The notes beneath the pieces are model-generated. The model made no database searches, had not been told where the DNA came from, and saw only the letters and a program-made list of their open reading frames with translations. DNA of 63,850 nucleotides, counting the filler, from Reclinomonas americana ATCC 50394 (Eukaryota): NCBI GenBank assembly GCA_048213135.1. It is 19 parts of 19 records of this genome, joined end to end, with 100 filler letters (N's around TTAATTAATTAA, not from the genome) between each part and the next. Parts side by side here need not be neighbours in the genome. Positions count along the whole stretch, not along the records: positions 11,828 to 21,409 come from AFZH01022359.1; 18 more parts are not named here. One strand, given 5' to 3'. The position numbers and the translations under genes were made by a program. Below, in pieces: positions 1,266 to 48,004 of the stretch (positions within the stretch are counted from its first letter, which is position 1; every line of letters begins with the position of its first letter).

Positions 1266-1701
1266 CCGAGGACGTGTGGGGAGAGTCCTCGGTGTGCTTG
1301 CATCCAAAATGTACACAAAACAATCACGATCGCCCACCAGGCAAGTCAGGGAAAAATGTGTGTGATACATTACAAGCAAAGTAGGAGTATGCCCGTTGCG
1401 TGACGCCCAGAACAAACACAGCGCCACGCAGCCAGACCTCCCCTTTGCAAACAATCATTTGCAAGCGTACTGACAGACGAGGGGGACGAGCAACGCAGTT
1501 GGAGGGGGAAAATAAGGGAAGAAACAAGCACAACAACAAGAAGGAAAAGAACAGCAACATCAAACAGCGGCCACTCGTTGCTCGCATGCCCGACGACCAC
1601 CAGTCGCCGCGTGCATCATCATCATCATCATCATCAAAAAGCAGCAGGACAAAGAAACAACGCAGAGACAAAAAACCTTGGCCTGCTCGCCACACACCGG
1701 C

Positions 1702-2009
1702 TTACAGGTCAAAATCCTCGTCGTCTGCCGGTCCGAGAGTCAACAACTCAATCTTCTCCGTGAGCTGCTCAATGGCCACCTTGTCGAGACCGTCGTCGGT
1801 TCGGCTCTCGATGGATTGCAGCAGCTTGTGCACGTCCTTGGTCAACTCGTGCTCGCAGCCAAAGATCTTGTTGGTGATCACAAAGGCGTGGCGAATCCAC
1901 TCGCATGCTTGCTCAATGGCGTTGTACTCCTGTGACACAAACTGGGCGGTGAGCATTCGCAGCCCGAGAGCAACAAACAAACCACCCACTCCTGCGACGT
2001 ACCGCATAC
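1702..2009 (-). CDS. 3' end of a hypothetical protein (TPR/SMYD-like C-terminal helices)
   Basis: ACEWIRHAFVITNKIFGCEHELTKDV resembles the G.EH..T helix pair of TPR/SMYD C-termini. Truncated by the gap. Confidence 0.3.
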
Positions 2010-2109
2010 NNNNNNNNNNNNNNNNNNNNNNNNNNNNNNNNNNNNNNNNNNNNTTAATTAATTAANNNNNNNNNNNNNNNNNNNNNNNNNNNNNNNNNNN
2101 NNNNNNNNN
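2010..2109. other. Artificial assembly spacer (44N-TTAATTAATTAA-44N); identical spacers start at 4837, 9703, 11728, 21410, 24748, 26090, 29128, 30612, 32529, 33966, 40776, 43139, 48137, 50555, 52231, 56596 and 61276
   Basis: Same 100-nt layout each time, with a six-frame stop linker. Confidence 0.99.
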
Positions 2110-4836
2110 AAATCTTTGCGCGGCTCTCATTCCGTCGGACAGGACGAGTCCGTCGACGCTATTGTGTATCGTTGTGAATGCGTGATGCCGCATTGTATGT
2201 GGCTCTGTCGCTGTGCACATCGAGTGAGGTGAATCTGTGGCTGGTGGATGGCGTCGAGGCCTTGTGCAAGCACTGTTTGCAAGTGGAGCAGCGATGGGTA
2301 TGCACATTTAATGCATGCAAACTCGCACACTTTCGTCACTCATCATGCACACAGGCGATGCATGTGCGACAACGTGACGCGGAGGACGAGTGGCAATGTC
2401 GAGCGCTGCACGAGAGTGAAGCCGTTGTGCAGCCTGTGTTGCGTGCATGTGCAATGCCACTGCCACTCGTGGCGACATGCCGTTGTGCGGTGCGTCGCTT
2501 GCTGGCGCTGGCGACTGCCGCTGAAGACAAGTCGACATCGACCTCGTCGGTGTGGCAGTGGCTGCTGGTGCAGGCGCGATGCACGGTGCGTCGACTGATG
2601 CAATGCCGGTGCGCGTGTGCGTCGCGCGCGGCGTGCTTGGCGGCCGCTCGAGCACTGCTGTTGCGCTGTCAGTGGCGAGCGCAGCAGCAGCGACATCGTG
2701 AAGAGCCAGCAGCGGCTGCGTGCACTGCGTGGGCGCACTGGCATGCCTCTGCGGCTGTGCAGTCGTCGTCGTCGTCGTGGAGTTCGTTGTTGGGCGTGCG
2801 ATGTGGTGTTGCTTGGGTCGTTGTTGACTGTGCGGCACAGGTCGCGTTGACACGCTGTGTCTGCTGCAGTATGCTGGTGGCACTGGTGCATCGCTGGAGG
2901 CGGCGTTGGTGGCCTTGTGTGCGCGTCGGCGGTGGGAGCACGTGTGGTGGGAGCGTGCGATTTGTGAGGTGTGGCGTGCAGTGGGGAACAGGGATGCAGA
3001 TGTCGCGTTCAACTTATTCGCGCTGCAGAGTGTTGCGAGGAAGCCGCTGACAGGAGCGGCGGTGATGAGGCAAGTGCAACTCATGATCCAGGGCGCCGTG
3101 CAGAAACGGCGTCGATTGGGGGAGGAGGAATTCGTGGCCATTCGGAGCACACTGCAAGCCGGCTGGAATCGCCTGTCGGCTCGGTGTGAAGTGTGTGTGT
3201 GTGTGTGAGTCGCACGACTCACTCTCTTGCGCTAACCTCGCGATCTACAGGGAGGCTCTCGTGGTGCGAACGTTGTACTGGGAGCTGGGGCGGGTGGCAC
3301 TCTGCGTCGACTCCTGGTGGCGTGAGGGAAAGGTGCTGACTGCAGCGGTGTCCGAGAGAACTGCGCTCCACATGGTACAGCGATGTGGCGGCATGCGGCA
3401 GCGCACTACTCGTCGTGTTCACCGTTTCTGCAAGCGACTTCAGTGGGACGATGCAGCTGTGAGTGACAAATCACCAGAGGAGGCTCCTTGGAAGAAGCGA
3501 GTGTCGGCAGCAGCTGTCACGTTTGAGACTGCATTTGCCATGTTTCAGTGTGTGCGTTCGGGTGCCTGGCACACCCCGTCCACTCCCTGGACCTCGTTTG
3601 TGACGGTGGAGACACACAATGGGTGGCGCGCACCGCCGTCACTCTGTTTGACAACTGAGGAATGGCAGCAGCAGCAGCAAGGGGGCGAAAGGAGTGGAGC
3701 ACCGGGCTCGGCGGTGCTGAGTTTTCTCGCGCAACTGGTTCGTGATGGGGGCACGGATGCTGCGGTGCCAGACAAGGACTCGTCTCCACAGTTACCTCCT
3801 GCGCACTTGAGTGCCAGACGACGTGAGCTTGTTGAGCAGCTGCAGAGCAAGTGGCGACAGGCGACGCACAGTCAACTGGAGACACTCATTGAGCGTCTCG
3901 TGTCGGCGAAAGAGATTGCAGCCGACAGCAATGCGCTGCTGGACGATATCGTCACGTGGCAGTCGTTCACACGCGTGCGAGTCAGTGAGTGGTGTCATCG
4001 ATTGGAACAGTTCCGCCTGGTGGTGAGTGCGCTGCGCAGTGAGTGGCGAATGCTGGGCAGGGCCATGGGCGTGCGGGCTGTTGAGCAGCGCGAAGGGAGC
4101 AACGGCGTGCGGCAGCTGGCCGACAAGGTATGTCTTTGTGCTTCGTACCACACTCGCTCACTCTGGGGCATGTGCGGTCTGACACGAGTGCGGTCGTGCA
4201 GGTGGAGCAACTCGACGCGTCGCTGCTGGCAGTGTTGACAGCATTGCGACCGCATGTGGGATCTGGTTGGTCGGTGCCACTGGCGCGGTCACAAACGGCC
4301 AGAACATGCGCGTCGTCCGTGTCACTGCCGGCGTTCCGTGCTCTGAGCCGCTTGCACGATTTTGTAAATGCTGCTGCTGCTGTGGACGACGACCCCAGTG
4401 CCGCCACGGTGGAATCCGAAGTGCGACGAGCAGTTGCCGAGTGGCCTGCTGCGCTCGCCGCCGTGTGTCGTACGGTGTTGCGCATGGGCGGGCTTGGAGC
4501 GGGGGACTCGGCGTCCACGCCGCTCATGACGAGCGCGCTGCGTGGATTGCGCACTCGGTTGCCGATGGTGTGTGTGTATGTGCTGGTGTATCTTTTCGGG
4601 AGTGCAGGTCTCACAGAAGCGATGGGTCGCAGGAGGGTGAGCGTGTGGAGGCCGTGGTGCGGCGACTTCAAGACGCTGTGCGTCAGGCAGCTCGTCTTTG
4701 TGCAGCAGACATGGTCGAGGTCGCGGCAGTCTTCCCCGACTGGGTCTCCACCAGCCACGCCCGCGAGGCGGAGGCTGCGACAGAAGGAGATGAAGGAGAA
4801 GAGGAAGAAGGGGACGGGCTGCGTAATAAACTTGCA
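2110..4836 (+). CDS. Multi-exon hypothetical protein (partial)
   Basis: Long plus-strand ORF segments (3186-4238, 4130-4836) interrupted by GT..AG introns, e.g. gtatgt at ~4128 and cag at ~4201. No domain recognised. Confidence 0.5.
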
Positions 4837-5563: not shown

Positions 5564-8115
5564 TCACGGCAGGCTCTGCACGGGCGGATAGCACGCCACG
5601 TGCATGTACTGCGGGCCCGTGAACTTGGCGTACACGGCGGTGAGGCCGTTGGGACACCGTGGTGACTCGGTGGAGCGCACATGTGCCCTCCACAACACGT
5701 CAAGCACCGGCTGCACCTCGGCCATGTCCCAGCCAAAGAACGATGACAGCGTGTCGGCCTGCATGCACAAAAAATGTTTGAGTGCGAGGAGGGAAAAGAG
5801 AGACAAAAGAGGCACAACACACAAACATACCGCAGCAGGCATGTCCAGCGTGTAAAACGCCAGCAAGACGCTGGTCTGCGCAATCAGTGATGATTCGACG
5901 CCGACCAGGTCGTACTCTTGCAGCGACAACTCCATGAAGTAGCACGACAAGTGGAACAACACGGTGTCGTCTTGCAGAATCTGCTCAATCTCCTCCGCAT
6001 CTGCACAGTGACAGGGGTAGCGGGCGCGCACAGTGAGCATCTTTTGCAGACAACAACATCAATTAAAAACAGCGCAGATGCGGACACGCAACTGCAGTTG
6101 GCTTGGCGGGCACGCGACCAGGCATGGAAGAAGGAGCACAGCCACGAGTATGGCGTGACCACCGTGAGCTGCCACTGGAGGGCCTCCAGCATCAGCTTCT
6201 CCATGCGAATTGTCTACGAAAAAAAGTCAATACATGACACCTCCTGTTTCACATTTTCTCAACACTACACACCTGCTCGGCCGTGAAGGCGTTCTGAGTG
6301 GCCTCCACCAACGCATCCACTGGTCGGGGGACGACTTCCTCGTATTTGCTGTAATGAGGACGAGAAGAGAGTCAATTCCCCGTATCATCCATTCGGGGAA
6401 GGTGGCGGTGGTGAAGAGACGCAACATGGCCAAGAACAGAGCGGCGGCGCCAGCGAGTTGCAGGTGCTTCCGCAGCACCTTCATGCGTGACAAGAACCGG
6501 TCCAAAATGCTCACTGTGCGGCGAAAAGTCAGCCACACAAAGACAAGCGAAAGAATATTCTAAGAAAAGAGGAAAAGAGAACAAATCGACACCCCACAAA
6601 CCCCCCCCACCCGACCACACAGCACCAGCACCACAGACAGACATGCGCATGCAAGACGGAGGACAGAAAGTAATTCCGTACAGATTGTCAATTAAAACAG
6701 ATAAGAAAGCGGGGTTGTGAAACAGCAAATCAATACTAGACGGGTACAATAAGAAAAGACAGACAGACAACTCCGGCCCCAACCACCAACCACCCACCCA
6801 CCCACACACACACTCACCAGCCAAGCAGAGTGTTTCTGTTGAGCAACCGAGTTCGTGGTTGACGTCTGACATCCAGTCGAGCAGCATGGTGCGGTTGGCG
6901 GGTGTGACGTCGCCACCGCAGGCCTTGTGCATTTGCAAGTAGTTCGCACTGGCCATGTGAAGCACCTACAGAGCACACACACACACACAAGAGAGCGAGT
7001 GAGCATGACGTGAATTGTAAGACGGTAACGTTTCACCTTCACCGCCCCCAGCATCTCACAATTCGCTCACATCAAAGGCTAACCGCAACTGCGCTACCAC
7101 CATTGCTCAAACACTCGCTCTCACATACAGAGAGATACAGAAGAAAGAATCACCAAAGGGAGACTCGCCACGAGACACACACGCAGAGAGGAGAGAGAGA
7201 ACACGTTCGTGTGCGTCAGCGCTACTTGCCTGTTATGGAGGGTCGGGGGAAGGAGAAAAAAGGACAACTCACGCGTCTTCTCGCACCCACAAAAAAAAAG
7301 ACAAGTGCACACGCGCGTGTGAAGAGAGAAGAGAGACAGAGAGAATACAGCGCGTAGATGCATCACACGAGAGAATAAACGAGGGCGCAAAAAAGAATCG
7401 ACATCACACACACACAAGACATGTGCTGCACCACCACCAAACTCACCTCACTCGCATGCATGGTTCGCGCTGTGGCCAAGTCCTCCTCGGCCATCACCGG
7501 ACCCTGCGCGTGTGCAGGCTGCTGCTGCTGTTGCTGTTGCTGTTGTTGTTGTTGACACAGCTCGTCTTCCTCCTCCTCCTCAGAGTAATCCACATCGTCG
7601 TCGTCAGCAGAGTGCATGTCGGCATCTGTTGATGGCGGTTGTTGTGCGGAGAACGTCTCAAAGCCTGCGGCCTCGTAGGCGAAGCCTGGCGACGGCAGCA
7701 CCACATCTACACACACAAATGCAATATTCAGCACCAACAAACGCAGCAGTGGAGAGATGCAACACACAAAAACAAACCCTCGTGGGCGTGAGGCGAGGCC
7801 ATGACGCGCAGCTCCATGCCTACAAAGCAGCAACGGGCATGAGTACTCCACACACACACGCAATTAAACAAAAAAGGAATGGCAAGTTCGCGCGATGGCG
7901 GGGCATCTCGCCGCACACAAACACACTCACCGCACCCACTGGCCTTGCTCGCAGCTGCCGCAGCTGCGGCACCACTGCCACTGCTGCTGCTGCTGCTGCT
8001 GGTACCAACACACGTCGATGCAGACAGCTGCGTGGAGACAACAAAAGTGAGCGCGCGCGTGTGACAACACAAACAGAAGACACGACTCTCTGCTCACCTC
8101 CATTGCGGCCAGCAT
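5564..8115 (-). CDS. A/B-type cyclin (multi-exon)
   Basis: Cyclin box split over exons: RTMLLDWMSDVNHELGCSTETLCLA / VSILDRFLS..LQLAGAAALFLA / KYEE / MEKLMLEALQWQLTVVTPYSWL. C-terminal box YFMELSLQEY..VYAKF. Low-complexity poly-Q/S N-terminus; start at 8115 is tentative. Confidence 0.9.
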
Positions 8116-11300: not shown

Positions 11301-11992
11301 GTCGAGCGGCGTCGTTCAATACACTGGAGCTAGCAGGTAAGTGCATGTTTCCCTGTTGTGCCATTCTCGTGCACTGGCGTAGAGGGTTATGATCTCTGAC
11401 CGCGCACTGTGTTGCCCAACTCCCAGTGCGACTTTGGTGGCTTGAGCGATGCTGTGAGCGGGTATGTGAGTTTGTGTCTCTTGTCTCTCTCCCCTATTCC
11501 CCACCTTTCCAACCTCCTTCCCTCGCTCTCTTCTCCTCCTCTCCATCTTCGCAACGCTATTCTCACCCACACCTGCAGTTCGGTGCACCCAAGTGCACAA
11601 CACGCGTTGCACGGCCAACCATCTTCTGCTTCGCTGCAGCGGTATGTGAACCTGTGCGTGTCACCACTGCTTGTTGTTTGCGCTCGTGCAACGCTTCCAC
11701 ATCGCTCACACGAGTGGGGTTTGCCATNNNNNNNNNNNNNNNNNNNNNNNNNNNNNNNNNNNNNNNNNNNNTTAATTAATTAANNNNNNNNNNNNNNNNN
11801 NNNNNNNNNNNNNNNNNNNNNNNNNNNGATGAGAGCATGCATCGATATGAGCTGATAATGAACCATCTGAGCGCTTCTCTTGCAAGGAAACAATGTCTAC
11901 TGCATGGCTGTGGTGGTGCGAGGCAGAGGAGAGAAGCAGGCGTGCGGCGGTGCTGCTGCGCGCGCCGGTACCCGGCCGCACCTGGCCCGGAT

Positions 11993-12587
11993 GGAATCCT
12001 TCCGTAACACGTTTTCCGTGTGGAACACGAATGGAATACGCCCGGAGTAATGGGCTGTAAGAGTTTTACGACTTTAGAGACGGATTCCGACACGGAAAAC
12101 TCACCACCACACGGATTACGAGTGGAACACAGACGCAATCCGTCGCACGACTCACATGCATGTGAGTGAGCGACGAGGCCAAATTCTCTCTAAGTCACTC
12201 AACTCCAGTGCATCACACACCAAGAAACACCCACAGCACGTGAAACAATCCACCGCGGTTCATTGTGTTCCAAAACATGCGCTCCACACAGCACAAGCGA
12301 GTGCGGCAACTCCAACAATGCAGGCGATGAGTGAGGCGCGGAACCACCCACCCAACTCACTTTTTTTGACCGTGTGTGAGAAACACACAACGCCAAGTCG
12401 CGCGGCGAGTCACATCCTGCTCTCTGACAGATTCTCTACAAAATCACCGAGTGGCTGCGTGAGGAAAATGAACGAAAAGCGTCGCTCTCACTCACACGGC
12501 GGTTGTCCGAGAAACTCTGGACGAGGGGAAAACCCACGCGGAATCCATTTTCCGTGCACGGAATCCGTGTTCCCAGGGACGGAATCC
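11993..12587. repeat. Clustered GGAATCC / TTTTCCGT motif repeats (second cluster at 9562-9641)
   Basis: GGAATCC or its complement at 9562, 9593, 9635, 11993, 12082, 12540, 12560 and 12581. TTTTCCGT or its complement at 9583, 9615, 12012, 12092 and 12548. Confidence 0.7.
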
Positions 12588-14600
12588 ATACCGGACTCTC
12601 CCAGGGATGCATGCTTATAATTATAATTATAATTATATAATATTGCCGTAATTATGAATGTGGCGCACATTGCTGCAAAGCAGAAATGGCGGGAGCCAGT
12701 GAGTAACGGTCAAACAAGCAATTGACAGGAGGGAGGGGTGCAAAGGGCCAGAACAAAGCACACCAGGGACAACAGCAGAGACCGTTCCCAAGCTCACCTT
12801 TCACCTGCACTCATGGAGTGCGTCGAGCAACGAAGAACACACGACGTCCGTGGGTAAACATTCTGGTACTTAAACACACTTCCAAGCACGCCGACGCAAC
12901 TATTTTTCCTGTTGGTGCGCGCAGTCGTGTGAGTACCACCACCATCAGCGAAAATATACACAGCTCGAACATGATTGGTAGTACGCACATAAAGTCTGGA
13001 GACACTTCTCAGTCATGTTGGCAGCACTCTTGATGGTGCGGAGAATAGGAATGCCATCCACAAGCCGGGAGCAGGCGTCGCGACACACGTACAACACACA
13101 CACACACACACACCATCATGGTCACAGGCTGCTCACTGCGTTTGCAAACAGATGACGAATGAGTCCCAAGTGCACTTGCTACACTTCCACACTGACCGCA
13201 CGCAACCACTCACCGCATCCTGTTATTGACCCGTAACATACATGAAGCACACGAGACGTGTACAGCATGCATGCTGCTTGGTGTGTGTGTGTGTGTGTGC
13301 AGGAGGGACGTGCGCACGGCTCCAATCATCGGCGTGGTGGCTTCCAGATCAGTCCAGTTGGGAGTAGTTTGAGCGAAAGAGCCAGTCGCGTTGCAAGTAA
13401 TAAGAAAAGGGGTCGATAAAGATGAGAGGGGTAGTGGGAAAACAAAAAAGAAGATTGCAGATAGAAACAAGAGAAAGATCTGATATATAAAATAAAAAAA
13501 AATCACACTCGGAGTGTGAGAAACAAAAAGAAGACACACATACACACACACACACTCGAAGATCGCATGTGCACGGTGAGAAAAATGACAAGACTCAAAA
13601 TGAGCACGGCCACGGGTTAGGAGACGGCGCAATAATAATGCAAGTAAAAGTGAGAAAGTGTACAGCCCTCACAATGGAGGGGGAAAATAAAAAAGTAAAC
13701 ATATGAAACAAATAACAACTAACAATAGCCAAACAAGAAGCCAAGATATTAGCTTCGTAGAATACAGCACAGGTCACACCCCACGTGAACCACATGTAAG
13801 GCGCTGCGGCACGGCGTCCATCGCGAACGTTCACCTGGCACCGGCGCTGGCGGCCGTCACTTGGCGCTGTACGTGCGCTGGTACGCGAGTCAGCGTGGTG
13901 AAGATGGAGAACAGATTGCGATGTACGTGCAGTTTGTAGCCGCTGGCTAGGCACCCGGCGCGTTGGCGACGAATACCACATACTGGCTCCGTAGACCGTG
14001 CCATCCGCCGACATTGGCGCCAACGCTCGTCTCACTGCCGCGAAACAAAACCGTCATTCTCACGCAGAGACCGAGACAATTGCAAGAAGGATTGGCGTGA
14101 GAACAACGAAGAAACACGAAAACCAAAGAATGGCAGAAGAGAGGAAAGGGACAGAGAGAGAGAGCAGGAACACAGTGCCGATGAGAGTGAATCACCATCA
14201 TGCTCGACACTTGACAAACACACTAGTGCACTGATAGTCGGGATAGTGCTGCAGCACACAACCGAGCTCAGTGAGAGGGAGGAGAAACGCGGAACATGTG
14301 TGATAATCTCCTCCATACTCCTGTTCCTTTCTCCTTCAATCTCCCTCCCGTTCCAGTTCTCTTTTGCTTTCCACCATTCTCACCTCTTCCACGAGACGCA
14401 CTGTGAACTGTTCCACGGCGATGCAAAGCGGCGATAATCCGACGTCCTGCACCTCCGCACCTCCAACACGCTGTACCCCTGTTTGCGAGTGTGAGTGTGG
14501 ATTCATGAAAACCGATGCTGCACTCAGTTTTTCTCTCATCCTCTCCCTCTCTCTCCCCTTGCTCTCCCTCACCAAAACGCAACATGCAATAGGGCTCCAG

Positions 14601-15261
14601 CTAGCTGTCGTCTAATCGAGCAAGCCGCGCCTTCAGTCGGCCGCAACGAACTAACTGTCCGATTACTCCTTGACCGAGTAGCCACGAGAGGTCCTCGACA
14701 CCTACATCAGCGGCTCGGCGGTGAAGTCGTCGCACACGTTCGTCCAGAACGTGCAGCGCATCGATCATGCGGTCAATCGCGGAGTGCATGTGATCTTCGG
14801 CAATGAGGTCGACGGGGCGTGCCCACGAGCGCTCCAATCGCTCCAGTCGACGATTGCTTCTGTCCAGCGATTTGTAAATGACTTGCAGTTGCGCACCAAT
14901 GTCTGCATCGACATCGTCCGCCGCCGCTGCCGCTGCTGTTGGTGCTGCGCCAGTTCCAAAAAATGGCACCGCTCCAGATCTCGCAGTGTGCGGGGTTGCT
15001 GTCGCTGAAGCCACTGCCCAGGCCGCCGCCGCCGCCGCCGCAGCCGCTCCAGCTCCAGTCACCGCCCGCGGAAAAACAGGTGAGCTTCGTTGCGGATTCG
15101 GGGCAGCAACAGGCCACGCTGCTGATCCTGACGCCTGACCTCCAGACGTATAAGTAGCTGCCAACCGGAACCGCCAGCGCTGCACAGGAGGATTCGTGTC
15201 GACAAGCATCGGCACTGGCAACGGTGCCGCGTCCGTCGGAGCGAGTGGCAAGCCGGCACCC

Positions 15262-15294
<33 letters not shown>

Positions 15295-18200
15295 CCACCA
15301 CCACAACCACCACCACCACCACCACTACCACCACCAGCACCAGCGCCAGTACCAGCACCAGAACCAATGCGGGCCATGAACACGTAGATGCCCAGGATGC
15401 ACGCCGCTGCCTTCATGTCGCGATGGACCCGCAGTCTGCCCAGCAAACAGGCTGGCTGACATTGTGGGCATGTCAGAGCGCGCTTGCCGCCAATCTTCTT
15501 GCCGTATGTGCCTCCGCACATGCATCGCCGGGAGGAGAGGCATTCGGAGACCCGCACAAGAGGCTTCTTTGGCGCAAGTGGATGGGCGTATCGCCGCAGA
15601 TCCAACTGTTGCACCAGTGTGGCAAAGTTGTCGCTCTGGACGCATAGCATCAATCAATCGTTAACAACAATGTAGCAGGCAATCAAACATGACTGAACAT
15701 ACAAACAACACACCTGCAACTCCATGCGACGAACGAGCTGGCCGAACCCAGAGAGTATGTTCAGAGACACAGTCTTCTTGGACGTGGTGCGGCGTCGCCA
15801 GATAACATCACCGGATTCGGTGACGATATTACGCTTTTTCGCATTCATATCGTTCACCCCATGCGAATAGAATGGCATAACCACTGAGGCGTAGCGGCCC
15901 TCTCCACAGTACCTGACAATGCGGAAGAGTGGTCAGCGACACGCTGGCAGGTATAACAGAACAGAGTGTAAAACAACGCACCGACGAGCGATGAAGTTCT
16001 GGTAGCCCTCACGCGTCGTCCGCATCGCATCCCACGCAGCTTGCTTCAGCCTCTCGCACTCGGCACGACATCCACGGTCCATGAAGCGGCCGTATTGCCC
16101 ACAGATTGCGTCCAGCTGTCGAACGTGGTCCGCAAATGGTTTCAGTTGCCTTTCCGCATAGGCGTCGCCCTCCGTGAAGAAATGCAGCCCGTCTGCATAG
16201 AGAGAAGTCGACAATCGCGCAACCAAATCAGCACACGGAACACCAACGGAGCACACATGCAAGCGCACGCACGCACGCACACTCACCCCTGTCCAGTTGC
16301 ACAATGGCAAGCATGTGAACGATACCTGGATCGAACGCGGCCACCGTATTCGCCAAACATTGCCGACGATAGCGGTCCCGAATGGCGGCGTCGCGCCGAC
16401 AAAGAGGGGGGCCGTCGACATTACCAATGGCACTGTCGACTTCAGCAATTGCTGCCGCAGCCCTCGCCAGCTCGCCCAGTTCAGCAGCGATGCGCTCGCC
16501 GCTCCACATTCCTCGCCAGGTTGCCGATTTCTTGCATGACAGCACTGACTGCAAGGTCGGTGAACGGTCTTCCGCGCGACGGATGCTGTCCATCCTGCCG
16601 GCGTTTTCGTCTCTCTGTGCCACAAACAGCGAGCAGACGAGCTCGACAAGCGACATCTGAGACAGCTGTCGCAGTACTGCATGCGTGCGTGGTGACGTAA
16701 ACAGTGAGTCGCTTGCGCCGATGAATAATCGAAAAATCTTTTAACCACTCCACCTTTGCGATCCATCTTCGCTGCACGCAGATCATGTTGAAGCTGCACT
16801 TGTGTCGCGCTCCGCATGTCGTCCGTTCCCGTAAAATTTCTCCATTGCGACCCCGACTTGAGAGCCAGTTCGTACAGCGCTCTGTTGGCTGCCTTTCCAG
16901 CGTACATACTCATACGGGCGGGGTTGTGTTTGAGGGTGGAGAGCTGCCGGATGCGTTGTCGCCTCTTCTGATGGTGTCGTCGGGGCTCGATGAGGAACCT
17001 GAACGCTACCTCCATCAACCGCCCTCTCACACTTGCATTGACATGCCCTTGATTCGATAAAACTATGAATAAGCAGCACGTTAGTTGTCGCACACAAAGA
17101 TGGTGTTCTTTTCGCAAAAAAATCTATATACTGACGCACCAAAGTCAATCGGTGATGCATTCGGCAGATGCCGACCGGTGGCGTCAGACAAGATGTCCAT
17201 GTTTCGTCGAGAAAGCAGAGTTTCTGCGTCGACGCGCGGAATCATTAGTGCGACGTATGGAAGCGCGCAGGATTGATCACACGCAAGAGTCACATACCGC
17301 CCACTTGAGACCGCAGTTCGCGCATGATGAACACGCGAATACAAGCGGTGAAGCACGAGAACAGTGCATCTCGGGCGCGCCAATGTCTAACAGCGAGGGC
17401 GGCGTCTTCGTGGCCCTCCAGTGGCAGTAATTGCACGGCATCACGACTGTGGCACGCCCAGTGCAGCAAGTGATCGAAGCTGTTGGCACCAACGATGCCA
17501 TGGTTGGTTTTGCCGGTCGAGTTTGTCTTCGTCATGCCAGCCAGGAGATCGCGTGCGCTGACTCGATAAAGCCCAGCGCCTGGGGCAGTGTATCGACAAG
17601 CGGCCAGCAGCAGTCGGCACCATTGCAGGTGAGAATTCATCAAGAATTCGGCCACCGTGGTCCCAATCCCAAGTGGCGCGTGGAGATTGGAGGCGAGAAT
17701 GGCGACGTCATCGTGTGCTGGTGGCCGAGTCGACAGCCAGAAAGAACGGACGAGCTCGAGGCCAGCATAGTGTTGTTGGAGGTGGTCAACGGGCGCGGGC
17801 GTGGTGAGGAGTTCATCAATGGCACGCCCAAGTTTCTCAAGCTCTTCCACGACCACTTGGATCGCGTTTTGAAAAACAGTGTTCACACCGGCAACCGTGG
17901 GATCGTCAACATCTGCGCGTATTCAGCGCATACAGCAACGGAGTGAATTCCATGCAAAGGAAACTAAAGACAAATACAGGTAAATGGTACTCAACTCCCT
18001 GGGCGTGCCCGTGGCTTCATCTGTCGCCACGCGGTTGGGAATCGGTTGCCACCAACCACAGCGGTGTAGTTGGCGCGTAGCAAGCCCACGGCGTGCTTCG
18101 CCCACTCGAACAGGGACACAAGGAAGTCGCGGGCGGATGCAGCAAGTCTTTCTTCGCAGCACTCGACATCCACCAGCTGTTGTGATAGTAGCAAAAACCT

Positions 18201-21200
18201 GGCGGCTGCATGAACCAAACAGCGCAGTGAGACAATATACCAATAGCAATTAGAGACGTGCGCATTAACACAAACCCATGCGATCCTGCACCGTTTCCAC
18301 TTGACTTGCCAGTGTGGGCGTCACCCAGCTCGCATGCGGCAACAATCCAACAGTCGCCACCCACGCGCCACAACCAATTGCGGTCCGCAACGCGGTGAGA
18401 ACGCCACGAAAATCGTCATTGGTGTGGGCAAGGGGTCGAACACGCTCCTGGACTAACCAGCGCACCGCCAGAGGGCCAACGTCAACAAGATTCGCAATGA
18501 ACTCAACGCTGGTCCGGATGCGTGTACGTGAATCAGCAGCAGCAGCCGGTGGCATCGGTGTGATAAATTTCGCACAAAGAACGTCCACACAGTCCTTGAG
18601 ATACTCCACATTAACAGCAGCAGTAGTGTCCGTCCGCGCCCACGCCGGTAACCCGTCACCAAATGCAGCACTCACGTCCACGCGCATCAACCGGCTGAGC
18701 ACAAAGATATTGGCCCTCGTCTCAGATGCGAGACACACGCAGGTGACGAGTTCATCCCCACACGACTCTGCAAGTCTCTTTTTGGCGTAGTCAACGCCGC
18801 CATCGTGATCGTCATCCCAGGAGCAATAACCCGCAAGTGTCAGCAGCAGTCGCGCTCCCTCGGCGGTCAGCTCCACCAGCCGCTTTTGGTAACAGGAAAG
18901 TAACGCGGAGAGGCATCGGTCGCGGTCGCCGACGGCACTCCCATATGCATTTGCGCCGCCACCGTCACTGGCACCATCCTTCCCGTCACTGCCGCTCCCA
19001 CTTGCGCCGTCGCCGTCACTGTCACTGGAGCTAGCACCGGCACTCCAGCTGTCACCCTCACTGGCACTGGCACCGTCACTGTCTATGTCGGTGCTGGACT
19101 CCAGAAATTGCAGCATATCACACAAGACAGCAACTTCCGCCAATCGCTTCCCGCATGCAACTTGAGAGACGTTTCCTGCGTGTCACCCCAGGTGTTTCCA
19201 ATGTGAGTCATAGACGCGTTGTGTGGTGCACCAGACTCGAAGTGCACAGAAACTCACCCTGCACGACACGGTCAAGCATGCGCGCGACGTTGAACACTGT
19301 CGCAGTTGACATTCCGAATGCTTCCGCAAATATCCGAGGACACTGCTCGCGCAACAATCGCACGGCGGTCTCTGTACACGTGGTCCGTGCTGATGAGCTC
19401 AAATCAACCCTCACAGCAGCTGGGGGAGCCACCGCTGCTGCTGCTGCTGATGGTGCCGAGTCACTGGCCACGAGCAGTGCGCCATGACACGACTGGTAAA
19501 GCCCAAAGAGAGCAATTGCCGCTTGCACTCGCAGAGTCCCGGCATCCAGGCATAGTGTCTCCACACTCGACAGATCAGCCGTTGAGGAGAGCAACTGATC
19601 CTGCCGCGTTTGCTTCGCCAAGTGGCGGACCTTCTCCTTGCTGCACCCCACACAAGGATACGCAAGGTCAAATGACTGAAGAAGGGGTACGCGAATCCAA
19701 CTTCACGCACACGACGGCAATGTTGTTCCTGAGATTAGGATCATCTCGGTCGCCGGCAGTTGGTACTCCTAGCTGGTCGACCACGCGATCCAGCTGGCGC
19801 TGAGTGGCGCTGGCGCTGGCGTCACCGCTTACGAATGCGACGCAGTCCAGCGGTTGCATTGATGCAGCATGGAGGAATGCCGCTCGTGAGCAACGCGACA
19901 CCCGATACTTGTTGTCAACGAGAGACGTAAGCAGGTACACAGCTGTGCATGGTGTGCGGAGGAGTAAGCAATGGGAAGACACAAAAATCAGCAAGAAAGT
20001 GATAAACCTTTCTTTGATAACTGGTCAAAGTCCGGCGCCGTCGACTCTGTGGTGCCCTTCTTCTCCGCCTCCTCGTCCTCCACCACCTCCTCCTCCTCGA
20101 CCTTCTCCTCGTCGATATCATCGATATCGTCACCCACTGTCAGAGCATCAGCGACCGGGCAAGCAATAGTCACTTCGTCTGCTCCCTCCCCTTCCTGCTC
20201 CTCCTCCTCGTCCTCCTCCTCCTCGTCTGCATAAACGCGACTCCCGCCATCTCCGGCCGGCCGGCGTGGCGCCGGATCCGGGGCAGTCGTCGCAAACAAC
20301 AGCGGCCACTCGGCCACTGGCATGCGAACCAGCTGATCGGCCTGCTCCCGCATGGCAGTCGTCACAACTCCAACAAGACGCGCGTCGCCTGCGCCTCCTG
20401 CCTGAGCAACGGTGACGGCGGCTTCGGCAGAGTTCACGAAATGCTGGGCGCAAGCGCGCACTGTGCTGCTGCACTCCTCCTCCGACGTCGCGACCGGACT
20501 GTCGGCGATGACCACGGCCAGCCTGTCGAGTGCTTCTCCGAGAGTGTACACGACATCCTCGCATTCCATGTCCAAGATGCTCACACCTGCATTGCGTTGG
20601 CGCGTCAGCTCCGACATACTGGTATCGGCGACACAAGAGTCGACTCTCACCATCACTTGCACGCGCAGCTGGAGATGGAATCGAGACGGGCTTGCCAAGT
20701 GCAGCGTTCTCGTGCTGAACACGACAGGCTTTGACAACGCGAAAAATCTTCGCCCATCCTCGCGCTAAAGTGGTGGAAAATGAGCAGACTGCGGACACAC
20801 ACACGTGCGCTCACGAGCATTACTCACAGAGCACATCCTGGAGATGATGCATCTTGGATCTTGCGGTGACAAGTGACCCGAGTGCGTGTTGGACGATCTC
20901 GCTCGCCTGTGACGCAGCGTGCAATCCCAACTCTTCAAACTCGTTGTCACGCTCCGAATTCACGCGCGCGAAAGCAAGAAGGTCTGCACATGAGCGAAAT
21001 GAGTGACAAACCACAAGAACATGCACCCATTCGAAATCCACAAACCAAGTTCGTTACTTCTCATGTCGGACAATAGATATACGTATTCGTTGAATGCCGT
21101 AGAAAGAGTGCTGCTGACCTTGTCCAAACTGGCCTGCTGTTCTTGAGTGGCGTTGCGAAAAAGTGACGATTCGCCGAGGAGAAGATTTCTCCCCGCCGTG

Positions 21201-21273
21201 TCCACACAATCGGGAGGGTTCAGACAGTACGCGAGGCATATGGCATTGCCGATAGCACTCCACACATTAGCCA
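14601..21273 (-). CDS. Giant intron-containing Fanzor2/TnpB-like RuvC nuclease fusion protein (at least ~1,876 aa, 5'-partial)
   Basis: Exons 21273-21058, 20983-20828, 20764-20651, 20586-20008, 19942-19711, 19640-19258, 19175-18276, 18205-17996, 17912-17298, 17223-17140, 17062-16754, 16676-16287, 16192-15982, 15912-15714, 15635-14601. All 14 introns are GT..AG and the frame is preserved. RuvC-I VAAFDPG (D 16330-16332), VVMPFY (P 15873-15875), VSECLSS (E 15543-15545), CMCG..CPQC zinc finger, HRDMKAA (D 15417-15419). Confidence 0.8.
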
Positions 21274-21292
21274 CTGCAGATTATTCAATGAG

Positions 21293-21409
<117 letters not shown>

Positions 21410-21523
21410 NNNNNNNNNNNNNNNNNNNNNNNNNNNNNNNNNNNNNNNNNNNNTTAATTAATTAANNNNNNNNNNNNNNNNNNNNNNNNNNNNNNNNNNN
21501 NNNNNNNNNCCTCTCTCTCTCTC

Positions 21524-26971: not shown

Positions 26972-27113
26972 GGTCTTTGGGGGGGAGTAATGAAGTGTTG
27001 TTGGAGAAGAAGGCGGGGTTGAAACGTCGAGACAGTCCCACTCTCCTCTACAACTTCGTTCATTCGTCTCACACGCAAGCACACCCTCTCATCCCCTCCC
27101 CCCCCCCCCCCCA

Positions 27114-28205
27114 ATGTCTTTCGCTCATCCCTCAGTACTCATCTGTAGAACTGTGCGTGGACACACTGCATGTGTGACGTCAGTTGCCGTCACTCCCGAC
27201 GGTCAGCATCTCGTGAGTGGTAGCTGTGACAGGACAGTGTGTGTGTGGTCACTGGTGAGTGGAAGGGAGGTGCGACAACTGGAGGGACACACGCGCGCGG
27301 TGCATTCTGTCATCGTCACTCCCGACGGCCAGTACATTGTGAGTGGGAGTGTCTTCGGAAAAATTCTAGTGTCGTCACTGGAGAGTGGCGACGAGCGACA
27401 GATGGATTTCGCTGGGGATGAGTGTTGTCTCGCCATCACCCCCGACAGTCTGCATGTGGTGAGCGGAAACCGTGGCGATTGTGTGCTGATGCGGTCGCTG
27501 GCGAGTGGGAAAGTAGTGCGTCAATTGGAGGGACACACTGCCTCGGTAAAGTCAGTTGCTGTTTCACCCGATGGCAAGCACGTGGTGAGTGGCAGTGAAG
27601 ACCAGACAGTGCGAGTGTGGTCACTCGCGAGTGGCGAGGAAATGCGGCGGATGGAAGGGCACAATGCCTCGGTGATGTCTGTTGCTGTCTCACCCGATGG
27701 TCTGCATGTGGTAAGTGGCAGCTATGATCGCACAGTGCGCGTGTGGTCGTTGTCGAATGGTGAAGAGGTGCGGCGAATGGATGGTCACACTGGACGGGTG
27801 CGAGCAGTTGCTGTCACTCCCGACAGTCAGTATGTCGTCAGCGGGAGCGAAGACAGGACTGCGCGAGTGTGGTCACTGGCGAGTGGCAAAGAGGTGCGAC
27901 GGCTGGAGGGATACACTGACTGGGTGCGATCAGTCACAGTTTCTCCCGATGGGCAGCACCTGGTGAGTGGCGGCGACGTGGACGTGCGAGTCTGGTCCAC
28001 ACCTTGCGGCCTTGCTCAGTGCGAGGAAGATGCCGCTCGGTCGGCCATGCTCGCCGTGCAGCAGCTGCAGCGAAAGAGAGCGGAGGAGAGCGGCGTGGAA
28101 GAAGATCGCCGATGTTTGGTGGAGATGGTGCTGCGGTGCTTCGTTGTGGAGGATGCAGAGGCGTCATTCTTCCGCTGCCGCGCGAGTCCCCTGCTGCACC
28201 TGTGA
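27114..28205 (+). CDS. 7-bladed WD40 protein, plus array copy 2 (363 aa, intronless)
   Basis: Starts MSFAHPSVLICRT; seven WD repeats; tail DRRCLVEMVLRCFVVEDAE..FRC. Confidence 0.97.
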   Translation: MSFAHPSVLICRTVRGHTACVTSVAVTPDGQHLVSGSCDRTVCVWSLVSGREVRQLEGHTRAVHSVIVTPDGQYIVSGSVFGKILVSSLESGDERQMDFAGDECCLAITPDSLHVVSGNRGDCVLMRSLASGKVVRQLEGHTASVKSVAVSPDGKHVVSGSEDQTVRVWSLASGEEMRRMEGHNASVMSVAVSPDGLHVVSGSYDRTVRVWSLSNGEEVRRMDGHTGRVRAVAVTPDSQYVVSGSEDRTARVWSLASGKEVRRLEGYTDWVRSVTVSPDGQHLVSGGDVDVRVWSTPCGLAQCEEDAARSAMLAVQQLQRKRAEESGVEEDRRCLVEMVLRCFVVEDAEASFFRCRASPLLHL

Positions 28206-28331
28206 GGCCTTTGGGGGGAAGTAATGAAGTGTTGTTATAGAGAAGAAGGCGGGGTTGCAACGTCGAGACGGTCCCATGATCACTCGTTCATCCATCTTCT
28301 CGCACGCATACACACCCCCTCATCCTTCCAA

Positions 28332-29589
28332 ATGTCTTTTGCTCATCCCTCAGTACTCTTCTGTAGAACCCTGCGCGGTCACAGGCGCACGGTGCATTCT
28401 GTCGCCATCACTCCCGACGGCCAACAAATCGTCAGTGGAAGCAATGACAAGACAGTGCGTGTGTGGTCGCTGGCGAGCGGCGAAGAAGTGCGTCGTCTGG
28501 AGGGACACACACGCGGGGTGTGCTCCGTCGTCGTCACTCCCGACGGCCAGCACATTGTGAGCGGAGGTGACGACAAGACAGTGCGAGTGTGGTCAGTGGC
28601 GAGTGGCAAAGAGGTGCGACAGATTGCTTTCACTGCGGACTTGTGCTGTCTCGCCATCGCCCCCGACAGCCTGCACGTGGTGAGCGGAAGTGGTGACGAC
28701 TGTGTGCGGCTGTGGTCACTGGCGAGTGGAAAATGTGTTCGACGGTTGAAGGGACACACGAACTGGGTTCTGTGCGTGGCTGTCACACCCGATGGTCAGT
28801 ACGTGGTGAGTGGGAGTGATGACTGCACAGTGCGAGTGTGGTCTCTGGCCACTGGCAAGGAAATGCGACGGATGGAGGGGCACACTGCCTCGGTGGTGTC
28901 TGTGACTGTCTCACCCGATGGTCTTTACGTGGTGAGTGGCAGCGCTGATTACACAATGCGCGTGTGGTCGTTGTCGAGTGGTGAAGAGATGCGACGGTTG
29001 AAGGGTCATGCTGACTGGGTGCGATCTGTCGCCGTCACTCCCGATGGTCAGTTCCTCGTCAGCGGGAGCGACGACAAGACAGTGCGTGTGTGGTCGCTGG
29101 CGAGTGGCGAAGAGGTGCGACGTCTGANNNNNNNNNNNNNNNNNNNNNNNNNNNNNNNNNNNNNNNNNNNNTTAATTAATTAANNNNNNNNNNNNNNNNN
29201 NNNNNNNNNNNNNNNNNNNNNNNNNNNGACAGTGTTCGTCTTCTCTTCCCTCTCAAGTGAACTCGAGCGGGCAACAAGTGCGGCGATTGAAAGGTCATGC
29301 GGATGTGGTGCAGTCGGTCACCGTCAGTCCCGACGGGTCGCTCTTGGTGTCGGGGAACTGGGACGGGTCAGTGCAGGTGTGGTATACGCCGTGTGAGCAC
29401 GCGCGTCGAGAACTCCGCCTGGCGCGAATGGCGTGGGGGGCCGTGCGGGAGCTGATGGAGGACGAGAAGGAAGAAGACGAGGAGGATGATTCGCGCTGCT
29501 TGCCAGAGATGGTGTTGCGGTGTTTCCTTGTCGAGGATGCTGCCGTCGTTCTCCACCGGTGCTTTGCGAATCCCGACATGCACTTGTGA
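28332..29589 (+). CDS. WD40 protein, plus array copy 3 (interrupted by gap 29128-29227; the part after the gap may be a fourth copy)
   Basis: Starts MSFAHPSVLFCRT at 28332; after the gap, the last blade and the tail DSRCLPEMVLRCFLVEDAA. Confidence 0.9.
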
Positions 29590-35652: not shown

Positions 35653-36720
35653 TCAATCGCCTGCTGCGGAAGAGTGCCGGAAGAGCATCGCCTCTGCATC
35701 CTCGACGATGAAGCACCTCAGCACAATCTCCACCAGGCAGCGGCGATCTACTTCCTCCTTCTCCTGTAGCTCCTGCACGGCGACCATGGCCCGATGTACG
35801 CAGTCGACTTCTTGTCGCGCGAGACCAAGCGGCGTCGACCACACTCGCACCGTCATGTCTAGACTCCCACTGACGACGTGTTGCCCGTCTGGACTCACGG
35901 TCACCGATCGCAAGCTGTCAGTGTGCCCCTCCAACCGCTGCATCTCCTCGCCACTTGCCAGTGACCACACACGCACTGTTTCGTCGCGACTCCCGCTCAC
36001 AATGTGCAGACCACTGGGGGTGGCAGCCACAGATAACACGGCGTCGGTGTGCCCGACGAATCGTCGCACCTCTTGCCCACTCGCCAGGGACCACACACGC
36101 ACTGTCATGTCCAAACTCCCACTCACAGCGTGCTGGCCATCGGGAGTGGCAGCGACAGCGTACACCCATCTGGTGTGACCCTCCATTCGTCGCACCTCCT
36201 CTCCACTCGCCAGTGACCACATTCGCACGCAGTTGTCCATAATCCCACTCACTACGTGCTGACCGTCGGGAGTGACGGCAACTGACGTCACTGGTGCGCG
36301 ATGGCCTCTCAAACGTCTCACCACCTTGCCACTCGCCAGGGACCACACCGCCAACTCAAACCCTCTGCTCACCACAAGCAGACCATCGCAAGTGACGGCA
36401 ACGGACCGCACGTTTTCGGCGGCTCCTTCCAACCGTCGGACTTCTGCCCCACTCTCCATTGACCACACACGCACTGTGTGGTCATCACTCCCACTCACCA
36501 CGTGCTTTCCATCGGGAGTGACAGCAACAGATTTCACAACTTTTGTGTGTCCCTCCAGCCGTTGCACTTGCTCTCCACTCGCCAGTGACCACACGCGCAC
36601 TGTCTTGTCATGACTACCACTTATAATGTGCTGACCATCGGGAGAGACGGCGGCCGACCACACTCCTTCGGTGTGTCCACGCAGTACCTTGCAGTGGAGG
36701 GTGGAGGTGGCGAGTGACAT
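35653..36720 (-). CDS. 7-bladed WD40 protein, minus array (355 aa)
   Basis: MSLATSTLHCK start, 7 WD repeats, tail VDRRCLVEIVLRCFIVEDAEA. Confidence 0.97.
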   Translation of the reverse strand: MSLATSTLHCKVLRGHTEGVWSAAVSPDGQHIISGSHDKTVRVWSLASGEQVQRLEGHTKVVKSVAVTPDGKHVVSGSDDHTVRVWSMESGAEVRRLEGAAENVRSVAVTCDGLLVVSRGFELAVWSLASGKVVRRLRGHRAPVTSVAVTPDGQHVVSGIMDNCVRMWSLASGEEVRRMEGHTRWVYAVAATPDGQHAVSGSLDMTVRVWSLASGQEVRRFVGHTDAVLSVAATPSGLHIVSGSRDETVRVWSLASGEEMQRLEGHTDSLRSVTVSPDGQHVVSGSLDMTVRVWSTPLGLARQEVDCVHRAMVAVQELQEKEEVDRRCLVEIVLRCFIVEDAEAMLFRHSSAAGD

Positions 36721-36894
36721 TGGTTAGCGCGCAACGAAGGGAGAGGGACGGAGAGTGCGGAGCAACGGGACATGAAGTTGTCGTTCTCTGCTTTCGTAAC
36801 AACAACAAGGTGCGTGGCGTTTCATTGCATACACAAAGACAGGAGAGAAGAGAAAAGCGACGGCGAAGAAAGAGAAAGCCGGTCGACTTCGGAA

Positions 36895-37965
36895 TCACAA
36901 TCGCAAGCAGCGGAACCGAGTTGCCTCCGCCTCTTCAACAATGAAGCACCTCAGCACAATCTCCACCAGACAGCGGGGATCAACCTCCTCCCCTTCCTTC
37001 TCCTTCTCCTCCTGCATCTCCTGCACGGCAAGCAACGCCGAGCGAGCGGCTTCCACTTCCCACCGGGCAAGACCGAGCGGCGTGGACCACACACGCACCG
37101 CCTTGTCCACACTCCCACTGACAATATGCTGCCCGTCGAAACTCACGGCAATAGACCTTACAGCATCCGTATGTCCATCCAGCTGTCGCACTTGCTCTCC
37201 ACTTGCCAGCGACCACACACGCACCGTACCATCAAAGCTGCTACTCACAACGTGTTCGCCATCGGGAGTCACAGCCACAGACAGCACCATGTCAGTGTGC
37301 CCCACAAGTCGTCGCACTTCGTCCCCGCTCGCCAGTGACCACAGCCGCACTGTGTAGTCTCCACTCCCGCTCACCACGTGCTGACCGTCGGCAGTGACGA
37401 CGAGAGACACCAGAGGTGCAGCGTGTCCCTCCATCCGTCGCACCTCTTCGCCACTGGCTAGTGACCACATACGCACAGTGCAGTCGCGGCTCCCACTCAC
37501 AACGTGCTGGCCGTCGGGAGTGACGGCGACACAGTTCACCACACCGGCGTGTCCCTCCAACCGGCGCACCTTTTCTCCACTCGCCAGTGACCACACTATC
37601 ATCTCATAACCTCCACACACAATGTGCTGGCCATTGGGAGTGATGGCAACAGAGTGCACCAAATCAGTGTGCCCCCTCAACCATCGCACCCCCTGTCCAC
37701 TCGCCAGTGACCACACACGCACAGTCTTATCCCAGCTACCACTGAAAACGTGCCTGCCGTCGGGAGTGACAGCGAGAGATGCTACAACTCCAGTGTGGCC
37801 CTCCAATCGTCGCACTTGCTCGCCACTCTTTAACGACCACACGCGCACATTGCGGTCCTCACTCCCGCTCACCACGTGCAGACCGTCGGGAGTGATGGCG
37901 ACTGACCACAGCTCGGTGTGTCCACGCAACGTCTTGCAGTGGAGAGTGGAGGTGGCGAGTGACAT
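36895..37965 (-). CDS. 7-bladed WD40 protein, minus array (356 aa)
   Basis: Same architecture as neighbours, intronless. Confidence 0.97.
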   Translation of the reverse strand: MSLATSTLHCKTLRGHTELWSVAITPDGLHVVSGSEDRNVRVWSLKSGEQVRRLEGHTGVVASLAVTPDGRHVFSGSWDKTVRVWSLASGQGVRWLRGHTDLVHSVAITPNGQHIVCGGYEMIVWSLASGEKVRRLEGHAGVVNCVAVTPDGQHVVSGSRDCTVRMWSLASGEEVRRMEGHAAPLVSLVVTADGQHVVSGSGDYTVRLWSLASGDEVRRLVGHTDMVLSVAVTPDGEHVVSSSFDGTVRVWSLASGEQVRQLDGHTDAVRSIAVSFDGQHIVSGSVDKAVRVWSTPLGLARWEVEAARSALLAVQEMQEEKEKEGEEVDPRCLVEIVLRCFIVEEAEATRFRCLRL

Positions 37966-38130
37966 GGTTGGCGCGCGAGGGAGAGGGAGAGTGTCTGGAG
38001 GACGACAAGGAGCGGGACATTAAGTTTGTCGTTCTCTGCTTTCGTGCCGAGAGCAAGGTGCGTGGTGTTTCATTGCATATGTGCAGAAGGAAAGGAACGG
38101 AAGAGGATACGCCGGTCGACGTCGGAATCA

Positions 38131-46953: not shown

Positions 46954-46967
46954 GACAGGGAAAGAGG

Positions 46968-47021
<54 letters not shown>

Positions 47022-47921: not shown

Positions 47922-48004
<83 letters not shown>

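Follow-up and report, generated by a model that had tools for sequence, protein, structure and literature searches.

Fanzors, the RNA-guided DNA nucleases of eukaryotes, are sought after as genome editors of compact size. The gene described here lies on the minus strand at about 17015-14601 of a 63,850-base window (the whole stretch of DNA analysed) from Reclinomonas americana ATCC 50394 (GCA_048213135.1), which consists of short contigs (about 1-10 kb) chained by N44-TTAATTAATTAA-N44 linkers, the gene sitting in contig 11828-21409 (9.6 kb). It is probably a five-exon gene of the Fanzor lineage, namely a new and highly diverged member of the DPG/alternative-Glu (DPG/Ealt) clade (pro-Fanzor/Fanzor) of the TnpB superfamily. 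The original prediction had taken it for an intron-split Fanzor2/IS607-TnpB-type RuvC nuclease with an intact D-E-D triad. This reading holds for the C-terminal module and probably for the RuvC core as a whole; the Fanzor2 and IS607-type assignments are unproven, and the triad, whose three residues are present, is only putatively intact.

The closest known systems are Fanzor2 and the cyanobacterial pro-Fanzors, IS607-type proteins of the DPG/Ealt kind such as mimivirus L79/ApmFz2 (9b0l) and the Microcoleus phage protein WOL31425.1. According to the papers cited, the canonical RuvC-II Glu of Fanzors is replaced by Pro or Gly and the relocated Glu is essential; Fanzors have also gained introns, at densities like those of their hosts, and nuclear localisation signals are present in them (Jiang 2023). 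The DPG motif together with the alternative Glu defines the pro-Fanzor/Fanzor2/Fanzor1 lineage (Yoon 2023), the active residues of ApmFz2 are D324, E467 and D501 (Schargel 2024), and the diversity and architecture of Fanzors are covered in Saito 2023. Our gene has in common with Fanzor2 and the pro-Fanzors a candidate DPG at RuvC-I, a candidate Pro at the canonical RuvC-II Glu, a Glu within V.VSE six residues before the ribbon, [ST]S two residues before the first Cys, a GG-(S/K)-(K/R)...C..C second knuckle and the RuvC-III Arg-Asp. Unlike those proteins, it shows an identity of only 21-32% over the last exon (the best aligned identities to giant-virus members being 32% for L024 and 29% for L017 and L025) and is undetectable by HMMER elsewhere; it also has a CxC knuckle, a 7-residue insertion, four candidate introns and a tail of about 270 residues, and no IS607 serine recombinase was found in its 9.6-kb contig.

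The Fanzor1 proteins (SpuFz1, PDB 8GKH; CrFNuc of Chlamydomonas) are likewise encoded by eukaryotic genes, many with a host-like intron density, and are described as 600-800 residues long, with insertions in both RuvC and REC and a DPG/Ealt active site of the same kind; this likeness is drawn from descriptions, which also give the Fanzor1 WED domain a TDG motif. Unlike the case of Fanzor1, no eukaryotic transposase and no terminal inverted repeats or target site duplications were found around our gene in a scan of the contig. Canonical IS200/IS605 TnpB (ISDra2, Helicobacter prophage TnpB) and Cas12f possess the same module of TNB zinc ribbon and RuvC-III but are described as keeping the β4 Glu and a hydrophobic residue after the RuvC-I Asp, whereas our gene would have Pro at both places and a relocated Glu. 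An intron-split Fanzor with a rearranged triad is therefore a known kind of thing, and what sets this one apart is how far it has diverged, its altered knuckle and spacings, its long tail and the absence of a mobile-element context in the little DNA at hand. The published Fanzor catalogues, which are contained in supplements, might already include the locus or its close relatives.

Judging from its sequence, the last exon (exon E) encodes a TnpB/Fanzor-type TNB module of the DPG/Ealt clade, with a predicted β5 carrying the relocated Glu, a four-Cys ribbon and the RuvC-III Arg-Asp (residues are counted from the Met of MEVAF: D203, P301, E385, C392/C394, C410/C413, D427). It was compared with a set consisting of Fanzor2/pro-Fanzor-type sequences only. 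One profile, fam, contained 121 sequences, namely the Microcoleus phage protein and its cyanobacterial relatives (the best 120 of 3494 at E <=1e-5), with P0001 and P0003 dropped; the second, fam2, contained 27 sequences. Viral loci, many of them from giant-virus bins, were gathered in two lots of 22 and 78, and 60 of 103 loci (L001-L003 counted) had an ORF (open reading frame) passing the motif filter, of which 43 were left after removal of pairs with at least 65% identity; together with 5 cyanobacterial proteins these make up the 48 sequences of the third profile, fam3.

Against the giant-virus Fanzor2/cyanobacterial pro-Fanzor profile, exon E reached an hhalign score of 45.6 (Prob 91%, P 1.1e-6), which was reached by 0 of 200 composition-preserving shuffles (mean 13.4, standard deviation (sd) 2.8, maximum 25.6; z about 11), and the reversed exon scored 9.5. 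Against fam3, the values were Prob 92% and P 6.7e-7. The family hidden Markov model (HMM) gave exon E 16 bits versus no more than 5.0 bits for 667 other ORFs of the window and 1000 shuffles, and with the C-terminal block HMM the exon E site ranked 1 of 1696. A second match of that block HMM, at 13138-13200, was rejected as a low-complexity (GT)n tract translating to CVCV. When exon E was aligned with 26 family members by MAFFT, the columns that did not vary in any of the 27 rows included E31 (Glu385), S35, C38 (C392), G42, C56 (C410), C59 (C413), R72 (R426) and D73 (D427) in the numbering of the exon E core. The relocated Glu that had been predicted before the zinc finger is indeed located six residues ahead of the first knuckle Cys (E-CLSSRR-C), in a column invariant with all 26 members, and the predicted GG-K/R..C..C segment and RuvC-III Arg-Asp likewise fall in invariant columns.

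The 91-residue core of exon E matched PF07282 clusters in 29 of 30 ESM Atlas matches (top score 0.95, 177 shared features), and tblastn of exon E against 50,697 phage records (E <=10) produced two matches, both in the TNB domain of TnpB genes. One of them, the weak match H1, falls in the TNB module of the Helicobacter prophage TnpB, and the other is a Microcoleus phage protein of 561 residues carrying DPG, IFLPTF, VSEAYTSKTCTSCG, GGSKVFKCPNCG and SRDFNGALGI, its segments including VSEAYTSKTC and GGSKVFKCPNC, which is the pro-Fanzor signature as described in Yoon 2023. The nearest solved structure to the comparison family is mimivirus L79/ApmFz2 (9b0l, E 1.6e-32). AlphaFold2 gave exon E with the 27-row alignment a predicted local distance difference test score (pLDDT) of 59.2, which is low and driven by the alignment, and a mean pLDDT of 38 to the read-through of exons C-E under genetic code table 4 as a single sequence.

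In the record OR578706.1 (Microcoleus phage My-WqHQDG), the gene at 1540-3225 annotated as "hypothetical protein" was seen to be a full pro-Fanzor-type TnpB (PF07282, E 2.4e-19) with DPG, LPTF, the relocated Glu and a 180-residue N-terminal extension.

The assignment of exons B-D to the rest of the RuvC core is supported, though not proven, by comparison of the predicted protein with the same family. Residues 186-354, from the end of exon B to exon D, scored 23.8 against fam3 (hhalign P 0.0095, template columns 365-464), compared with a mean of 13.0 (sd 2.0, maximum 19.1) for 60 shuffles and 11.3 for the reversed segment. This alignment, made with exon E excluded, falls directly before the columns where exon E aligns, and it aligns VAAFDPG (D203) with the invariant DPG column and RYASVVMPFY (P301) with nY..I.LP.F, a position which adds weight to the candidate upstream RuvC. 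The DPG RuvC-I of the original prediction is present and meets the invariant column, although at a P of only about 0.01, and the RuvC-I block HMM placed the DPG site at only rank 5 of 1017. Likewise, the Pro predicted at the canonical RuvC-II Glu, Pro301 in VVMPFY, stands on the family LP column at a P of about 0.01 in a weak alignment, and the short block HMM missed it. Further upstream, an exon A segment was aligned by hhalign with the N-terminal family motif KIRIYP..AACRYCYNQAIA, which is colinear with the rest but not significant alone.

All five peptides quoted in the original prediction were found on the minus strand in stop-to-stop ORFs: VAAFDPGIVHMLAIV within ORF 16228-16740, ERLKQAAWDAMRTTREGYQNFIARR within ORF 15933-17123, YASVVMPFY within ORF 15654-15932, and LVRVSECLSSRRCMCGGTYGKKIGGKRALTCPQC together with HRDMKAAACI within ORF 14601-15653. 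It is true that the motifs lie in four different ORFs, although exons C, D and E share one frame, in which they are parted by single TGAs (15935-15933 and 15656-15654). The three introns proposed have candidate GT..AG counterparts at 16286-16193 (94 nt), 15981-15913 (69 nt) and 15713-15636 (78 nt), here introns 2-4, and a fourth was added upstream at 16753-16677. The locus would then be a eukaryotic gene spliced from five or more minus-strand exons. Joining the five modelled ones makes a single open frame of 2205 nt:

17297..17922, minus strand: possible further upstream exon, a 210-aa open frame with a codon log-odds of 0.25 and no Pfam family
16754..17015, minus strand: candidate exon A, taken to run from the first available ATG (MEVAF...) as far as the donor AAAG/GTGGAG (the slash marks the junction); true start uncertain
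16677..16753, minus strand: candidate intron 1, 77 nt, GTGGAG...GCATGCAG, phase 1, T 0.27, GC 0.48
16287..16676, minus strand: candidate exon B, a WED/REC-like stretch ending in VAAFDPGIVHMLAIVQLDR, with the codon of the candidate RuvC-I Asp D203 at 16332-16330
16193..16286, minus strand: candidate intron 2, 94 nt, GTGAGT...TCTATGCAG, phase 1
15982..16192, minus strand: candidate exon C, DGLHFFTEGD...ERLKQAAWDAMRTTREGYQNFIARR, which would hold β3 and the long helices ahead of β4
15913..15981, minus strand: candidate intron 3, 69 nt, GTGCGT...CATTGTCAG, in frame with exons C and D, with a single TGA at 15935-15933
15714..15912, minus strand: candidate exon D, YCGEGRYASVVMPFYSHGVNDM...RRMELQ, with the Pro301 codon (15875-15873) at the canonical RuvC-II Glu place
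15636..15713, minus strand: candidate intron 4, 78 nt, GTGTGT...TGCGTCCAG, in frame with exons D and E, with a single TGA at 15656-15654
15363..15635, minus strand: exon E core, TNB domain, 91 aa
15545-15543, minus strand: relocated Glu385 in the predicted β5, exon E core
15524-15522, 15518-15516, 15470-15468 and 15461-15459, minus strand: C392, C394, C410 and C413 of the putative zinc ribbon, exon E core
15419-15417, minus strand: codon of D427 in RuvC-III R426-D427, exon E core
14601..15362, minus strand: C-terminal extension in the same open frame, stop TAG at 14603-14601

The four candidate introns (77, 94, 69 and 78 nt) all start with GTG and end with CAG, and their T fraction is 0.27-0.44 versus 0.16-0.25 in all exon parts, intron 4 being the most T-rich (0.44). 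The family alignment runs unbroken across the B/C junction, with no missing columns, and across the D/E junction. By codon log-odds trained on WD40 genes, frame 0 is the best of the same-strand frames in exons A-D (4/4; in exon A, 0.05 in its own frame versus -0.22 and -0.05 in the others) but is not favoured within the core of exon E. These are low values, 0.05-0.25 where the training genes reach about 0.3, and frame 0 is outscored by one antisense frame in exons A and C. Exon A encodes the basic stretch RRHHQKRRQR. The C-terminal extension consists of a first part (15362-14961) which is rich in Ala/Gly/Pro and of low complexity over GCA/CCA repeats, and of a second part (14960-14604) of about 119 residues which is charged and helix-like; its family matches in Pfam, NCBIfam and PHROGs were noise only, the comparison family has no counterpart of it, and the tail scores best in its own frame (0.11), whereas the low-complexity part does not (-0.35). 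The open frame at 17297-17922 could join exon A through a donor G/GTATGT near 17296 and an acceptor ending in TTCATAG near 17066, in phase 1, and may be either a candidate added exon or a separate gene.

Introns 3 and 4 might also be absent, in which case exons C-E would be one frame with two in-frame TGAs, being either nonsense mutations of a pseudogene or codons read as a residue. This is very unlikely, even though the three ORFs do lie in one frame with a single TGA at each interruption and table 4 yields a 276-residue product that still matches PF07282 at E 0.0013. Both TGAs are located inside T-rich stretches with GT..CAG ends, the intervening 23 and 26 residues have no family counterpart, the family alignment being shorter there, and the read-through yields no new family match; besides, of 8 long minus-strand ORFs listed on the contig, 6 end in TGA, as with a normal stop.

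Exon B is overlapped on the same strand by a second open frame over about 170 codons (15933-17123 vs 16228-16740), the frame of ORF 15933-17123 staying open through intron 1, exon B and intron 2, and an antisense ORF of 242 codons (15972-16700) covers the same region. Compared with the family by hhalign, the exon B frame scored 19.8 (P 0.031, template columns 265-387) versus 11.7 (P 0.59) for the competing frame, which over exon B is rich in Cys/Trp/His/Ser and poor in Glu/Asp/Ile, like an out-of-frame sequence.

The points that weigh against a Fanzor-lineage gene concern the scores of exon E, the family pattern, the upstream exons and the surroundings. With regard to the first, the exon E ORF scored 18.0 bits (E 0.0033) and the read-through piece 19.3 bits (E 0.0013) for PF07282 (Cas12f1-like TNB), both below the gathering threshold of 26.3 bits, and no true relative of exon E was found by HMMER among 1.84 billion representative proteins. 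NCBIfam guided_TnpB was matched at E 0.36 over profile positions 336-374 of 389 (10 bits vs a threshold of 100) and the PHROG 506 transposase at E 0.058, each of the three libraries being weak, yet all agreeing on the family. The missed thresholds would suit a Cys-rich zinc ribbon that resembles TnpB by chance, as would the lack of any PDB chain matched by sequence (0 matches for exon E at E <=10) and the nature of the sole HMMER match in the search of 1.84 billion proteins, P0001 (E 2.1e-5), a bacterial Cys-Gly repeat protein with VSCVSSTFCVAGGQYTD units that was dismissed as chance. Such a coincidence is hardly credible, as no shuffle of exon E came near its score, the match extends to the non-cysteine positions V.VSE, SS, GG.K/R and RD, and three libraries, the ESM Atlas and tblastn agree on one family. 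In other searches with exon E, a word-based search of longer proteins listed 65 candidates, none of which scored, and viral contigs gave 3 pattern matches with no relative among them. Of 195 pattern matches in metagenome contigs, a single locus (L001) was followed and rejected, having only MALTCPQCQ inside an unrelated bacterial ORF.

The departures from the pattern given in Yoon 2023 are threefold: there are 179 residues from DPG to Glu versus 120-160, the first knuckle is CxC versus CxxC, and 13 residues separate the second knuckle from the Asp versus 4-8. Among the viral loci, DPG was present in 22 of 22, and in each of the 17 that match the motif pattern this spacing is 6. The motif of Bao & Jurka, D-X(125,275)-[TS][TS]-X-X-C4-X(5,50)-RD, is satisfied, the 13-residue spacing falling inside its 5-50. 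All four Cys of the putative zinc ribbon (C392, C394, C410, C413) are present with 15 residues between the knuckles, and CxC corresponds to the second Cys moved by one position with the length unchanged, so that the nearly invariant second Cys column of the family holds Gly. The stretch from the ribbon to RuvC-III is lengthened by a 7-residue insertion, the distance from Pro to the relocated Glu is 84 residues versus 51 in the reference (P443, E494), i.e. about 33 extra, and about 270 further residues follow RuvC-III in frame. Of the deviations listed in the original prediction, CxC was confirmed, and so was Lys two residues after the Asp where the family has Asn; some members have Gln or His there, however, and at the second "Asn" position of that motif cyanobacterial members have Gly.

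For the upstream exons, the splicing of the four introns is itself inferred from candidate junctions in the DNA. Natural ORF chunks from the window (n=86) scored a mean of 14.0 (sd 3.3, maximum 24.6) against fam3 and 1 of the 86 reached 23.8, so the mid-region score stands at about the 1% level. The β4, helix and N-terminal block HMMs did not report the expected sites, exons A-D gave only noise matches and no TnpB family in Pfam, NCBIfam and PHROGs, and the ESM Atlas gave exon B 0.77 with no family. HMMER did not gain from splicing (16.1 bits spliced vs 16.2 for the ORF alone), and with a narrow cyanobacterial profile exons A-D scored 22.7, compared with a mean of 16.8 (sd 3.2, maximum 29.6) for 150 shuffles and 23.3 for the reversed sequence. 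A weak upstream signal is to be expected; its weakness is no evidence against the upstream exons.

Every significant signal being confined to exon E, only this exon may derive from TnpB/Fanzor, having either decayed to a fragment or been captured as a zinc-ribbon/RuvC-III module; the upstream exons would then be chance frames joined through chance GT..AG pairs, and the product no nuclease. We regard this as unlikely, though it is the most serious of the rivals considered. In this region all six frames commonly stay open for 100-400 codons, joins are easily found given the frequency of GT and AG, the N-terminal similarity stands at the 1% level only and failed with the first profile, and no paralogues or relatives were found in the window or among the 1.84 billion representatives. 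A relic would not explain, however, why the mid-region, aligned independently, matches precisely the columns from RuvC-I to β4 with DPG on DPG and Pro on Pro, why the four introns are alike in their GTG..CAG ends, 69-94 nt size and T-richness, and why the exon B frame is protein-like, whereas the overlapping one is not. We know of no role for a TNB module without the rest of RuvC.

As for the surroundings, the 34 other ORFs of at least 100 aa in the 9.6-kb contig have no Pfam family (E <=0.01), transposases included, no flanking inverted or terminal repeats were found beyond simple-sequence matches, the contig has no Rfam match, and no paralogue or repeat (similar DNA or protein) was found in the other 54 kb of the window. 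The IS607 context of the original prediction was not borne out by Pfam, which detected no serine recombinase (IS607 TnpA) in the contig; a gene farther off is possible, the contig being short. RNA folds downstream of the gene do not stand out: one has z 0.40 and the other -2.39, a stability matched by 2 of 100 shuffles. No tRNA was found in the contig. The region is stop-poor in all frames, 57 ORFs of at least 100 aa overlapping within 14.7 kb, so open frames alone carry little weight for the Fanzor-like gene.

If the locus is a five-exon Fanzor-lineage gene, exons B-D would supply an RNase-H-like RuvC, with Asp203 in the DPG hairpin, followed by long helices and by β4, in which Pro301 replaces the canonical Glu. 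Should the protein be active, which we consider possible but rather doubtful at present, Asp203, Glu385 and Asp427 would bind Mg2+ and cut DNA, an omega/fRNA derived from the locus's 3' part would pick the target through base pairing, and the cutting would help a mobile element persist, by analogy with the family (Jiang 2023, Saito 2023, Schargel 2024). In its present state, the gene looks like a solitary, old copy with the catalytic residues kept. It might instead be a host gene derived from a Fanzor rather than a transposon passenger, which would be single-copy, intron-bearing and free of a transposase, with its RuvC/zinc-ribbon core remodelled (CxC knuckle, insertions) and a low-complexity, helical C-terminal tail fused to it, but we rate this as quite improbable. 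To the same low degree, such a gene could correspond in eukaryotes to the domesticated TnpBs of bacteria (TldR-type RNA-guided factors) and might still be RNA-guided, for a cellular task.

The gene shows how far the family can drift with the three catalytic residues and the relocated Glu kept. Genes of this sort are missed by ORF-level or threshold-based annotation, the motifs being in separate exons, the Pfam score below threshold and the 1.84 billion representatives without a match. If active, it would widen the known sequence space by a CxC knuckle and a C-terminal tail, and if the host had retained it as a derivative, it would offer a first lead to the domestication of Fanzors by eukaryotes; as matters stand, it is one more Fanzor-lineage gene, unusually diverged.

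Upstream of the gene, on the same minus strand, there are coding-like ORFs at 17293-17922, 18268-19182 and 19991-20764 (codon log-odds 0.15-0.25) with no Pfam family. The window contains 18 linker sites between 2010 and 61375 (e.g. 11728-11827 and 21410-21509), and since these linkers between contigs are artificial, genes flanking a linker are not true neighbours. The DNA is eukaryotic in style, with a GC content of 50-60% and contig ends rich in microsatellites; (AC)n, (CT)n or (GA)n tracts stand at many contig ends, resembling a fragmented short-read assembly. An ORF with a cyclin C-terminal domain (5567-6058, minus strand; PF02984, E 1.5e-11) had no relative among longer proteins in a word-based search of 5.8 billion protein clusters, which suggests that the lineage is poorly sampled. 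Tandem near-identical WD40-repeat genes, which are an expanded gene family, were found on several contigs at 26994-29127 (plus strand), 35656-40574 (minus strand) and 43390-47238 (minus strand), the ORFs having 5-7 WD40 units each (PF00400, E down to 1e-75) and the copies sharing a final ...VLRCFIVEEAEA.RFRC tail followed by a new ATG; they were dropped as a source of an intron consensus, the ORF boundaries being gene ends rather than introns. A right-handed β-helix ORF lies at 49386-50174 on the plus strand (PF13229, E 1.8e-8), in a contig that is strongly base-skewed, with a GC skew of -0.44 at 48001-50000.

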